From IMG/VR virus record IMGVR_UViG_2609459824_000012: a stretch of 2,683 nucleotides of DNA, one strand, 5' to 3'. This document shows, one piece after another, positions 318 through 2,295 of the stretch. The stretch comes from a virus (lineage: Duplodnaviria > Heunggongvirae > Uroviricota > Caudoviricetes). Each line of letters starts with the position of its first letter. Position 1 is the stretch's first letter. The position numbers and the translations under genes were made by a program. The notes under the pieces were generated by a model. That model worked only from the letters and a program-made list of their open reading frames with translations, did not search any database and was not told the DNA's origin.

Positions 318-1000
318 TTAAACACTTCACTTATTCCATTGATGCGCTTCTGTTCATTACCAGCAATATTTGCCGCTCCCTGTGGCGGTGTAATCATTCC
401 TTTAATGGTTTCCGGCATATGTAAAAAATCTCCTGTGCGTTTCGATTCAATTCGCGCCATTGCTCTGACGGATGGCAACAATTCATCAGCAAAACCGTGC
501 TTAAGGCATTCTTTCCCATCCATCCAGGTTTCATCCTCCAGCATGGCGGTAATTTCCTGTGCTGATTTGCCCGTTTTTCTGGCATAAGCAGGGATTAACA
601 CGGTTTCCACCTTATCCAGCAAATCAGCATAATCACGCATATCGCCAGCATTTCCGCCAGAGATACCCCACGGTTTATGGATCATCATCATGGCGTTCTC
701 CGGCATAACAACACGATCGCCAGCCATTGCGACAACCGAAGCCATTGAAGCCGCAACACCATCGATATAAACCGTAATGTCTGCCGGATGATTCCGTAGC
801 AGGTTATAGATGGCGATGCCTTCAAACACATCACCACCTGGTGAATGGATCCTCAGATTGATATGTGAAACATCGCCAAGGGCTTTCAGGTCTTCCGCGA
901 ACTGCTTTGCAGTAACACCGAAGCCGCCAATCTCCTCATAGATAGATATATCCGCCGCTCCGCGAACATCCGCCGCCTTAATGGTGTACCAGTGATTCAT
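236..1000 (-). CDS. ClpP-fold (peptidase S14-like) serine protease, 254 aa, with a ~80-aa C-terminal extension; prohead-protease-like
   Basis: The translation aligns by eye to the ClpP core: HSPGGDVFEGIAIYNLL matches the ClpP NSPGG...IYD segment, GVAASMAS matches the active-site GxAASMG serine motif, MMIHKPWG matches the MIHQP histidine motif, and GFADEL sits where the catalytic Asp is expected. ATG at 1000-998 is preceded by GGAGAG (plus 1007-1012) with a 6-nt spacer. The start overlaps the stop of the upstream 69-aa ORF (ATGA, 1000-997). Confidence 0.85.
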   Translation of the reverse strand: MNHWYTIKAADVRGAADISIYEEIGGFGVTAKQFAEDLKALGDVSHINLRIHSPGGDVFEGIAIYNLLRNHPADITVYIDGVAASMASVVAMAGDRVVMPENAMMMIHKPWGISGGNAGDMRDYADLLDKVETVLIPAYARKTGKSAQEITAMLEDETWMDGKECLKHGFADELLPSVRAMARIESKRTGDFLHMPETIKGMITPPQGAANIAGNEQKRINGISEVFKNEARFAFKRDTDGGIRRLDAIMCIGH

Positions 1001-1206
1001 TGCTCACTCTCCGATGCAAAACCACTCTGATTAAGCCAGGCGTTTACGGCATGCCTGACAATCTGCGCCACACCTGGTAATGGTTTGTCAGGATGATGAT
1101 TTATATGGTCGATCCTGTACTGCTTAAGGCGCATAACGGTCTGCGCATCCAGATGAACGGAACCACCCCTGATATCGCCCGTGTTCAGGTCATTAATACA
1201 ACTCAC
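997..1206 (-). CDS. Small hypothetical protein (69 aa), possibly a ribbon-helix-helix-like DNA-binding protein or protease partner
   Basis: ORF with a GTG start at 1206-1204 preceded by a strong SD (AAGAGGAAG, 5-nt spacer). Its stop overlaps the ClpP-like start (ATGA), implying translational coupling. The pattern SVHLD / AQTVMRLKQYRIDHIN / VAQIVRHAVNAWL is compatible with a beta-strand and two helices, but this is a weak call without a profile search. Confidence 0.55.
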   Translation of the reverse strand: MSCINDLNTGDIRGGSVHLDAQTVMRLKQYRIDHINHHPDKPLPGVAQIVRHAVNAWLNQSGFASESEQ

Positions 1207-1308: not shown

Positions 1309-1331
1309 AAAAAAGCCGGATAAAATCCGGC
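1309..1331 (-). terminator. Rho-independent terminator (minus strand)
   Basis: On the minus strand: GCCGGA-TTTTA-TCCGGC hairpin (plus 1315-1331) followed by TTTTTT (complement of the A-run at 1309-1314). It lies about 100 nt upstream of the 69-aa ORF start. Confidence 0.65.
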
Positions 1332-1374
1332 ATAAATATCCCGCCATCTGAACACGTTTTGACACAGGCAACTC

Positions 1375-1387
1375 CACCTGGCAGGTG
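1375..1387. other. 13-bp palindrome CACCTG-G-CAGGTG, followed by iteron-like GGTGAAAAACAG
   Basis: Perfect inverted repeat seen directly, in the noncoding segment between the two minus-strand terminators. A related degenerate motif, GGTGAAAACAG, recurs at 1461-1471. Confidence 0.4.
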
Positions 1388-1582
1388 AAAAACAGATTTA
1401 TTTATATATTTCAATTAATTGCAAACTGGTCTAATGACAGGGAGAAAAAAATATTGTACAGGTGAAAACAGAAATAACTTTTAATTATCAATAAATTACT
1501 ACACATGCTGCCGCCGCCATGAAAATGCAAAAACCAGCCTTTTTCCGCGACGCTCCCGCCCCGTGGCAGGTCACTACACCGG

Positions 1583-1605
1583 GAGGACCCATAAAAAAGC
1601 CGGAT
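1583..1605 (-). terminator. Rho-independent terminator of the 81-aa/SSB operon (minus strand); possibly bidirectional
   Basis: On the minus strand: GCCGGA-GCAA-TCCGGC hairpin (plus 1589-1604, extendable by an A1588:T1605 pair) followed by a T-run (complement of A 1583-1588). It sits 25 nt downstream of the SSB stop (1631-1633). Its stem is the same as in the terminator at 1309-1331. Confidence 0.75.
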
Positions 1606-1630
1606 TGCTCCGGCTTCTGTTACTCGTTGC

Positions 1631-2053
1631 TTAAAACGGTATGTTATCCCCGTACGGATCATCATTTCCCGCCTGTTGTTTTGCTCTGCTCAGTGCATCA
1701 GTAGCCTGCCCCTGTTGGCCTTTTTTGCCGCCCGGTCGCGCCGTTCTCGCACTGATTACGCTGTCTGCGATACCCTGCCAGCCCTGCCGCGTCTCCCCGT
1801 TCTGTCCGGTCCACTGGCTCACCTGCATGTTACCCGCCACGCTCAGGAGTTCACCCTTGCGGTGCTTTGCCAGTGCTTCGGCCTGTCTGCCAAACGCCAG
1901 GACGGATAACCACATCGTCGCCGTTCCGTCATCTGCCTGGCTGCACGGAAGTGGGACCGCCATACTCGCCATCGTCATTTGTGTACCCTTGCTGGTGGTC
2001 TTTAACTGCGGGTCAGCCACCAGCCGCCCGTAAGCCGCTATCTGTGCTGTCAT
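1631..2053 (-). CDS. ssb: Single-stranded DNA-binding protein (SSB) homolog, 140 aa, compact with a short linker
   Basis: The translation shows OB-fold SSB hallmarks when compared with E. coli SSB: an N-terminal segment resembling VILVGNLGQDPE, a WLSVLAFGRQAEALAKHRKGE segment resembling [22 protein letters not shown], a WTGQNGETRQ segment resembling WTDQSGQDRY, and a C-terminal tip DDPYGDNIPF resembling the DDDIPF partner-binding tail. ATG at 2053-2051 is preceded by GGAGAG (plus 2062-2067, 8-nt spacer) and overlaps the upstream ORF stop (ATGA, 2053-2050). Confidence 0.85.
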   Translation of the reverse strand: MTAQIAAYGRLVADPQLKTTSKGTQMTMASMAVPLPCSQADDGTATMWLSVLAFGRQAEALAKHRKGELLSVAGNMQVSQWTGQNGETRQGWQGIADSVISARTARPGGKKGQQGQATDALSRAKQQAGNDDPYGDNIPF

Positions 2054-2295
2054 GCTGTCTGCTCTCCGGTTTTAACGTTGATGGTTGTCACCTGTTCCGC
2101 TTCGGCAATCTCCCGTTCTGTCAGCGTGGCAAAGTTTGCAGCTGCCGTTGTCATGAATGAGCTAATCAGTTCGGGATGTGCTTTCGCATATCCTTCCCCG
2201 GCGTTGCGGTCGATGATTTTTATCGACACCCTTAACCAGTGTTCCGTCAAATCAAGGGCGTGCGATTGTGATTTTTTTGTGTGCTTCGCTGTCAT
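2050..2295 (-). CDS. Hypothetical protein (81 aa), first gene of the SSB operon
   Basis: ORF with ATG at 2295-2293 and its stop overlapping the SSB start. The RBS is weak (GAGATAAAGCCT before the ATG). I recognise no family from the sequence. Support comes mainly from the operon layout, which mirrors the 69-aa/ClpP pair. Confidence 0.5.
   Translation of the reverse strand: MTAKHTKKSQSHALDLTEHWLRVSIKIIDRNAGEGYAKAHPELISSFMTTAAANFATLTEREIAEAEQVTTINVKTGEQTA

Follow-up and report, generated by a model that had tools for sequence, protein, structure and literature searches.

A probable lambda-type cos site between two terminator-like hairpins in an Escherichia coli phage satellite

Introduction

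What lies between two near-identical terminator-like hairpins that separate, on the minus strand, the SSB operon from the next operon in a viral DNA stretch of 2,683 nt (IMG/VR record IMGVR_UViG_2609459824_000012; the whole stretch is called the window below)? A sequence-only reading of this DNA described the segment as noncoding and AT-rich, with degenerate iterons and a palindrome, and proposed that it could give rise to a separate small RNA, be a secondary binding site for an alpha-type initiator, or form a double insulator between the operons. These proposals are considered here together with the homology of the segment, its stability as RNA and its distribution among related elements.

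The satellite and its genes

Complete E. coli chromosomes contain bases 319-2683 of the window in colinear form (99.6-100% identity). In strain B1-56 they are part of a 10.8-kb island having the order integrase, HTH regulator, BRO-N, Icd-like, DUF4222, D5-type primase, 81-aa gene and SSB, followed by a ClpP-protease/major-capsid fusion, a DUF1441 small terminase and a 93-aa gene. An almost identical element occurs as a free 10.79-kb circle, pZ1323HEC0475-3. The order of the satellite overall is int, alpA, icd, primase with iteron origin, 81-aa gene, SSB, 69-aa gene, ClpP/capsid, terS and 93-aa gene. An integrase, an alpA-type regulator, a primase with adjoining iteron origin, an incomplete set of virion genes and a length of about 10-12 kb, the marks of PICIs of the EcCICFT073 family, are all found, and by this gene content the window belongs to a phage satellite of that family in E. 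coli. The genes and the origin relevant here are the following:

2343-2570, unstranded: replication origin with true iterons (core GGTGAACAG on both strands, nine copies per origin unit), downstream of the primase gene
1631-2053, minus strand: SSB gene, the last of the satellite replication module (Pfam PF00436, E = 2e-14; RefSeq annotation)
997-1206, minus strand: 69-aa gene, the first of the capsid operon, downstream of hairpin T2 (PHROG 4934, a family without assigned function)

In the annotation of related islands, homologues of the 69-aa gene precede the capsid gene. The RefSeq record of B1-56 places a 57-aa plus-strand ORF (1093-1266) opposite this minus-strand gene. The 57-aa ORF has no PHROG match, the antisense 69-aa ORF matches PHROG 4934 with E = 2e-32, and the RefSeq strand choice at 1093-1266 is probably wrong.

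The ends of the contig (JNPR01000109.1) are repeated, bases 1-318 being an exact copy of 2366-2683 (318 nt), and the origin sequence is therefore also present at 1-204. At the junction 318/319 the 3' end of the primase gene is fused, with no microhomology, to the interior of the ClpP/capsid gene, so that the ORF at 236-1000 is chimeric; the junction was not found in complete genomes. The repeated ends are either an assembly artefact or the trace of a 2,365-bp circle with origin, SSB and cos1 (the cos site described below), i.e., a 'cosmid'-like deletion derivative.

In B1-56 (NZ_AP040249.1; locus L001, 8252-21182) the satellite splits the large-terminase gene of a lambdoid prophage into an N-terminal part (20190-21182) and a C-terminal part (8252-9373), and it thus seems to have inserted into a packaging gene of a prophage that could be a helper. 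A search of the island ends for att repeats gave none of 15 nt or longer, and the att core is not readable from the free circle, the integrase of pZ1323HEC0475-3 being different from that of the island.

Two terminator-like hairpins

The segment is limited by two hairpins on the minus strand, named T1 and T2:

1593-1616, minus strand: T1, hairpin like an intrinsic terminator, AAGCCGGA-GCAA-TCCGGCTT followed by TTTT (-16.0 kcal/mol, z = -3.6)
1309-1331, minus strand: T2, hairpin like an intrinsic terminator, GCCGGA(T)-TTT-(A)TCCGGC followed by T6 (-14.2 kcal/mol, z = -4.3)

T1 is composed of A6 at 1593-1598 and a stem at 1599-1604/1609-1614, extendable to 1597-1616 (minus strand AAGCCGGAGCAATCCGGCTT-TTTT), and its tail becomes T6 if only the minimal 6-bp stem is counted. 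T2 is composed of A6 at 1309-1314 and the stem GCCGGA/TCCGGC at 1315-1320/1326-1331 (minus strand GCCGGATTTTATCCGGC-TTTTTT). The two same-stem hairpins of the sequence-only reading are thus both real; T2 was placed exactly, and T1, given there as 1583-1605, was about 10 nt off. In RNA folding against 200 shuffles, none was as good as T2 and one was as good as T1. Both structures are GC-rich hairpins directly followed by a U-tract on the transcribed strand, and both are predicted to act as minus-strand intrinsic terminators. A consensus terminator scan lists T2 and does not list T1; our guess is that the scanner prolongs the stem of T1 into the T-run.

T1 begins 14 nt past the SSB stop, where it would end the primase/81-aa/SSB operon as had been suggested. 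T2 is located between a terS remnant (see below) and the promoter region of the 69-aa/ClpP-capsid operon, and 102 nt separate its end from the start of the 69-aa ORF. The spacer between the hairpins measures 261 nt (1332-1592).

T1 and T2 have in common their stems, the T6 run and 15 of the 16 nt of the 3' arm plus tail, and have unlike loops (GCAA and TTTTA, respectively). An origin of T2 by duplication of T1 was considered and rejected: the similarity spans only about 22 nt of a common hairpin type, over which descent is not separable from convergence. The 3' arm, T-run and GTG of T2 resemble the T1 variant of the L033 type. Among relatives, T1 variants retain pairing, with loop changes, a G-U wobble (L040) or a longer stem GCCGGGA/TCCCGGC (L033, L062, L071), and T2 variants have loop or closing-pair changes only.

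A phage-type cos site between the hairpins

In a phage genome search, bases 1358-1590 read on the minus strand matched bases 1-204 of phages cdtI and Tritos with 94.6% identity and the HannyBb cos region with 92.7%. Copies of these 233 nt (91-94% identity) are found in E. coli genomes right before a DUF1441 TerS gene, and sites adjoining such genes make up most of the list of 2,197 matching E. coli genomes. The subsites of the segment are as follows:

1358-1590, minus strand: cos1, whole phage-derived cassette cosQ-cosN-cosB (92.7-94.6% identity to HannyBb, cdtI and Tritos)
1584-1590, minus strand: cosQ core GGGTCCT, the same as in lambda, starting 29 nt ahead of cosN
1550-1561, minus strand: cosN, predicted cohesive end of 12 nt, GGGCGGGAGCGT, with the lambda flanks ACG and CGCGG (lambda cosN GGGCGGCGACCT)
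1486-1498, plus strand: IHF consensus TATCAATAAATTA (WATCAANNNNTTR), 64-76 bp from the predicted left end, candidate I1 site
1459-1471, minus strand: cosB repeat a, CTGTTTTCACCTG, candidate TerS-binding R element (phage copies CTCTTTTCACCTG)
1382-1395, minus strand: cosB repeat b, CTGTTTTTCACCTG, overlapping the palindrome at 1375-1387 (phage copies CTGATTTTCACCTG)
1358-1377, minus strand: phage terS 5' remnant, GTGGAGTTGCCTGTGTCAAA, corresponding to cdtI orf1 ATGGAGTTGCTTATGTCAAA (M-E-L-L-M-S-N)

Read on the minus strand, the order is TTTTTTAT, GGGTCCT (cosQ, defined as in PMC6092414 Fig. S5), 22 nt, ACG, GGGCGGGAGCGT (cosN), CGCGG and the AT-rich cosB. In alignment with lambda, the distance from cosQ to cosN is 29 nt versus 30 nt, and 8 of 12 bases of cosN match. 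The pattern GGGGCGGN4-7CGCGG occurs once in the window and not at all in 200 shuffles. The GenBank records of cdtI and Tritos start exactly at the first base of cosN, a start that may have been set by analogy with lambda and not by end mapping.

The IHF consensus is the sole match in the whole window, and cosB contains two direct repeats CTGTTTT(T)CACCTG of 13-14 nt at bp 91-103 and 167-180. Lambdoid cosB sites have the order R3-I1-R2-R1 (PMC9026076), and the IHF match and the two repeats are comparable in position to I1, R2 and R1, with the repeats as putative R elements. No clear equivalent of R3 was seen at bp 50-65. The phage homology ends at 1358, about seven codons into terS and 26 nt before T2; the cassette therefore extends from cosQ into the first few codons of this gene. 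The AT-richness noted previously applies to the cosB part only (23-38% GC across 1380-1500), the cosN/cosQ part having 57-65% GC (1500-1619).

The spacer 1332-1592 is thus very probably a complete minus-strand cos site of the lambda type, whose source was a cdtI/Tritos-type lambdoid phage that also contributed the first terS codons. Such a site would be a handle by which the terminase of a helper packages the satellite. The satellite's own TerS is only 32% identical to that of cdtI, and cos1 would therefore need a cdtI-type helper; phages of the cdtI/Tritos type are likely helpers of this island.

The IHF-site region of cosB is also part of an 18-nt inverted repeat (1240-1257 versus 1477-1494, 83% complementary), which pairs it with a conserved region upstream of the 69-aa gene (ACTTTTATCGATCAATAA). 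The sequence at 1240-1257 could represent another IHF-type site, located at the promoter of the capsid operon, or the similarity may be due to chance.

Transcript and iterons reconsidered

The spacer could instead encode a minus-strand small RNA of 150-250 nt ending at T2, which would give this strong terminator-like hairpin, otherwise without an obvious gene to end, a transcript in a spacer where no conserved ORF was found. A promoter scan, however, found no sigma-70-like site on the minus strand (the capsid-operon promoter was likewise not found by it), and the RNA of 261 nt is no better folded than shuffled sequences (z = +0.70; equalled by 153 of 200 shuffles). Rfam gives no match near threshold, and the matches at E <= 10 are noise, mostly microRNA models on iteron palindromes. 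The sequence is homologous to phage cos upstream of terS, and in relatives it is swapped for an unrelated cosB or is absent with the flanks kept. A small RNA is accordingly very improbable, and of the two roles once envisaged for the pair of hairpins, that of a double insulator, which fits the related satellites, is retained without the separate transcript.

A second region bound by a primase/alpha-type initiator, like crr of P4, was the other proposal, and it drew on motifs that are all present: GGTGAAAAACAG at 1384-1395, GGTGAAAACAG at 1461-1471, the palindrome CACCTGGCAGGTG at 1375-1387, and an ACAGGG at 1437-1442 that recurs beside an iteron at 181-186. GGTGAA(A)nCAG, which is similar to the iteron core GGTGAACAG, is present twice, more often than by chance (0.006 per shuffle). 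For the ACAGGG match (12/13 over ATGACAGGGNGAA) a rough estimate gives about 0.7 expected, so that it is no better than chance, and its neighbourhood is identical in the phages. The exact iteron core, present nine times in one origin unit (2343-2570), has no copy in 1332-1592, and the octamer TGTTCACC is broken in the repeats by two to three extra A/T bases. The supposed degenerate iterons are repeats that derive from phage cosB; the phage versions, GGTGAAAAGAG and GGTGAAAATCAG, have the common core TTTTCACCTG, which is not that of the iterons.

Relative to 16 distinct cdtI-type phage cos sequences, the island has three substitutions of its own in the cosB repeats and the palindrome. Through these changes the repeats come closer to each other in sequence (CTGTTTT(T)CACCTG) and become slightly more iteron-like, which favours initiator binding, and the palindrome is exact in the island only, the phages having the imperfect CCAGATGG. 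With about 12-16 differences over 233 nt, however, two within 26 nt are unremarkable, and the substitutions are compatible with chance at 5-7% divergence; the 16 phage sequences are too alike for per-position conservation of cosB to be informative. The phage-type repeats are retained in island L082, and the spacer is absent in relatives with the same primase and origin. Binding of an initiator to this spacer is therefore scarcely credible, and the repeats are best taken as part of a phage cosB.

Distribution among related satellites

Related loci were surveyed using 80 viral-contig loci fetched via the SSB protein and five E. coli loci, with enough downstream sequence in 84. A T1-type hairpin lies 19 nt past the SSB stop in 58 of the 84 satellites, which supports its assignment to the end of the SSB operon, and a cos site of one of several cosN/cosB classes lies 71-73 nt past the stop in 44. 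Two classes that were checked match different phages: the class of the window matches cdtI, and that of strain 272 matches 1720a-02 and CP-1639 (89%). At 15 loci T1 is present and cos is not; in strain A33 and EcCICFT073, for example, a further strong hairpin comes immediately after T1. Hence T1 is part of the end of the replication module, and the cos1 cassette that may follow it is optional.

T2 with its flanks is found in 169 E. coli genomes, at a coverage of at least 80% in 163, which is the number carrying the cos1 cassette, and it was seen only together with the cos1 cassette of the window class. The T1-cos1-T2 island is thus present in about 3% of complete E. coli genomes (163/5,426). 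Covariation support is weak because the stems of T1 and T2 vary only slightly. Two other cos1 classes have downstream hairpins of their own (-18.1 and -24.3 kcal/mol), and one class, known from one locus (L082), is without a T2-like hairpin. The family can thus dispense with cos1, which 40 of the 84 relatives lack, and with T2, which has no counterpart in L082. The T1-cos1-T2 unit is common to the B1-56 island and the circle pZ1323HEC0475-3. In the circle it is undamaged despite a deletion of about 595 nt from the interior of the 81-aa gene to near the end of SSB (L004 5840-5860 versus window 1690-2285).

The dispensability of cos1 raises the question whether it is an inactive relic of recombination, with packaging via a second site, cos2, and the satellite's own TerS only, and with the hairpins as ordinary operon ends. 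The absence of cos1 from 40 of 84 relatives is compatible with this, as are the fit of the satellite TerS to cos2, not cos1, and the finding that one of the two cos sites of EcCICFT073 is dispensable (PMC6092414, PMC6739421). Both of those sites are nevertheless functional when cloned, and they drive transfer by lambda and phi80 (PMC6092414, PMC6739421). The subsites of cos1 are all intact, with 93-95% identity to a working phage cos over the full length, and the T1-cos1-T2 unit is retained in 163 E. coli genomes. In the slot of cos1, moreover, cos cassettes from several types of phage are found, a pattern that points to repeated acquisition and not to decay. A relic is unlikely on this evidence, and cos1 is treated below as a putatively active cos site.

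Terminators beside cos and a proposed packaging route

Most satellite cos sites have a hairpin of -14 to -17 kcal/mol followed by T6-8 that stops 1-2 nt short of cosQ, with at least three unrelated stems among them. In the window, the T-run of T1 directly adjoins cosQ. A hairpin with T-run at cosQ was found in 10 of 10 satellite-context sites and, by the same scan, in none of 62 phage-context sites with the same cosN (TerS and TerL downstream). This distribution suggests that satellites keep transcription out of cos and that phages, whose late operon crosses cos, do not. Phages transcribe through cos unharmed, so we infer the insulating role of T1 and T2 from their distribution only. That satellite cos, unlike phage cos, is mostly found directly behind a terminator is a testable point for satellite biology.

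From the arrangement of these parts the following route may be proposed. Induction by a helper phage would lead to replication of the satellite. The helper small terminase (DUF1441 type) and IHF would bind cosB, the helper large terminase would nick cosN at about 1550/1561, and concatemeric satellite DNA would be packaged towards the capsid operon up to the next usable cos. T1 would terminate the replication operon and, since its T-run adjoins cosQ, would keep replication transcription out of cos. T2 would close the cassette past the dead terS start and prevent read-through from cos into the separately controlled capsid operon.

A second cos site and the range of helpers

The satellite has a further cos site, cos2, located 2,536 nt downstream of cos1 in the same orientation and directly upstream of its own terS. 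The cosB of cos2 resembles that of mEp460/phi458-type phages (77-82%), and the island TerS has 65% identity to the TerS of the surrounding prophage in B1-56, versus 32% to cdtI TerS. Among the cos1-bearing relatives with enough sequence, 30 of 36 have a second direct cos, and the cosN cores of the two sites differ in 26 of these 30. Since the cosN cores differ, and since the cosB regions, compared in the B1-56 island, match different phage groups, the pair could serve two helper lineages. Tentatively, then, there may be two insulated cos slots, each after a terminator, with cos2 fitting the satellite's own TerS and cos1 an exchangeable cassette copied from phages, an interpretation that is possible but somewhat doubtful. 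A terminator adjoining cosQ, absent from phage cos, would in that case be a satellite-specific requirement for cos function. Two direct cos with different cosN cores are present in most relatives of the ClpP/capsid type and in some of the capsid/decoration type, and may widen the range of helpers.

Other arrangements occur in the IMG/VR loci. In L017 and L012 the first 300 nt past the SSB stop contain T1, cosQ/cosN, a cos2-type cosB and terS, and the whole 69-aa/ClpP-capsid module is missing. This looks like a deletion by recombination between two direct cos sites. L046, L043, L089, L053 and L088 are without cos1 and have two inverted cos sites about 2.06 and 2.93 kb past the SSB stop; their cosN cores differ (GGGCGGCGACCT and GGGCGGGAGCAT), and the first site is without an upstream hairpin.

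Comparison with known systems

Helper-type cos sites in satellites are already known from P4, SaPIbov5 and EcCICFT073. The known picture of cos-based piracy is unchanged, and the value of the present analysis is incremental. A literature search found no description of terminators adjoining cos or of the subtype with ClpP/capsid plus TerS. The dual-specificity reading and the rule linking terminator and cosQ are the sole parts that would go beyond the literature found, and both are drawn from sequence comparison.

The closest likeness is to lambda and the lambdoid phages: cos1 has the same cosQ core, nearly the same cosQ-to-cosN spacing, 8 of 12 cosN bases with identical flanks, and an AT-rich cosB with an IHF consensus and repeated elements, followed by the start of terS. 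It differs from lambda cos in being located in a satellite and in having terS cut after about seven codons, with a terminator in its place, and from the lambdoid phage sites in the terminator that adjoins cosQ (0 of 62 phage sites). The cosB repeats (TTTTCACCTG) are unrelated to the R sequences of lambda, and both are direct, not inverted.

Induction and high-frequency transfer by a helper have been demonstrated for EcCICFT073 only (Fillol-Salom 2018, 2019; PMC6092414, PMC6739421). The present element has in common with it the satellite backbone (int, alpA, icd, DUF4222, primase and SSB), two cos sites with phage-like cosQ/cosN, and, at one of the EcCICFT073 cos sites, a GCCGGA-GNAA-TCCGGC hairpin with T-run adjoining cosQ. 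The cosB of EcCICFT073 is unlike that of any phage and needs Rpp to redirect the helper TerS, whereas the cosB of cos1 is nearly that of a phage. The small proteins tested here gave no Rpp-like match; the 69-aa and 93-aa proteins had no significant PDB matches and fall into PHROG families without assigned function. The cos sites of EcCICFT073 follow the capsid genes, one of them inverted; here both are direct, and cos1 follows SSB. The present satellite further differs in having its own TerS, a ClpP/capsid fusion and a cos1 paired with a second cos of different type.

EcCICFT073 (L092 23230-23300 and 25500-25560) itself contains two near-identical GCCGGA-GNAA-TCCGGC hairpins, one after the replication module without cos, the other after the capsid module and adjoining cosQ. 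Their placement suggests that, in the course of the family's evolution, a hairpin-plus-cos unit or else the capsid module has changed its position.

As in P4 and SaPIbov5, the satellite would carry the cos of its helper for packaging by the helper terminase. In those systems the helpers are P2 and staphylococcal cos phages, respectively, and the sequences are unrelated to cos1. To our knowledge, no pair of cos sites with different specificity is known in either of them. Laboratory cosmids likewise combine a phage cos with a plasmid-type origin, which makes the DNA packageable by a lambda-type terminase; here the combination is natural and is found in an integrating, inducible satellite with its own capsid gene.
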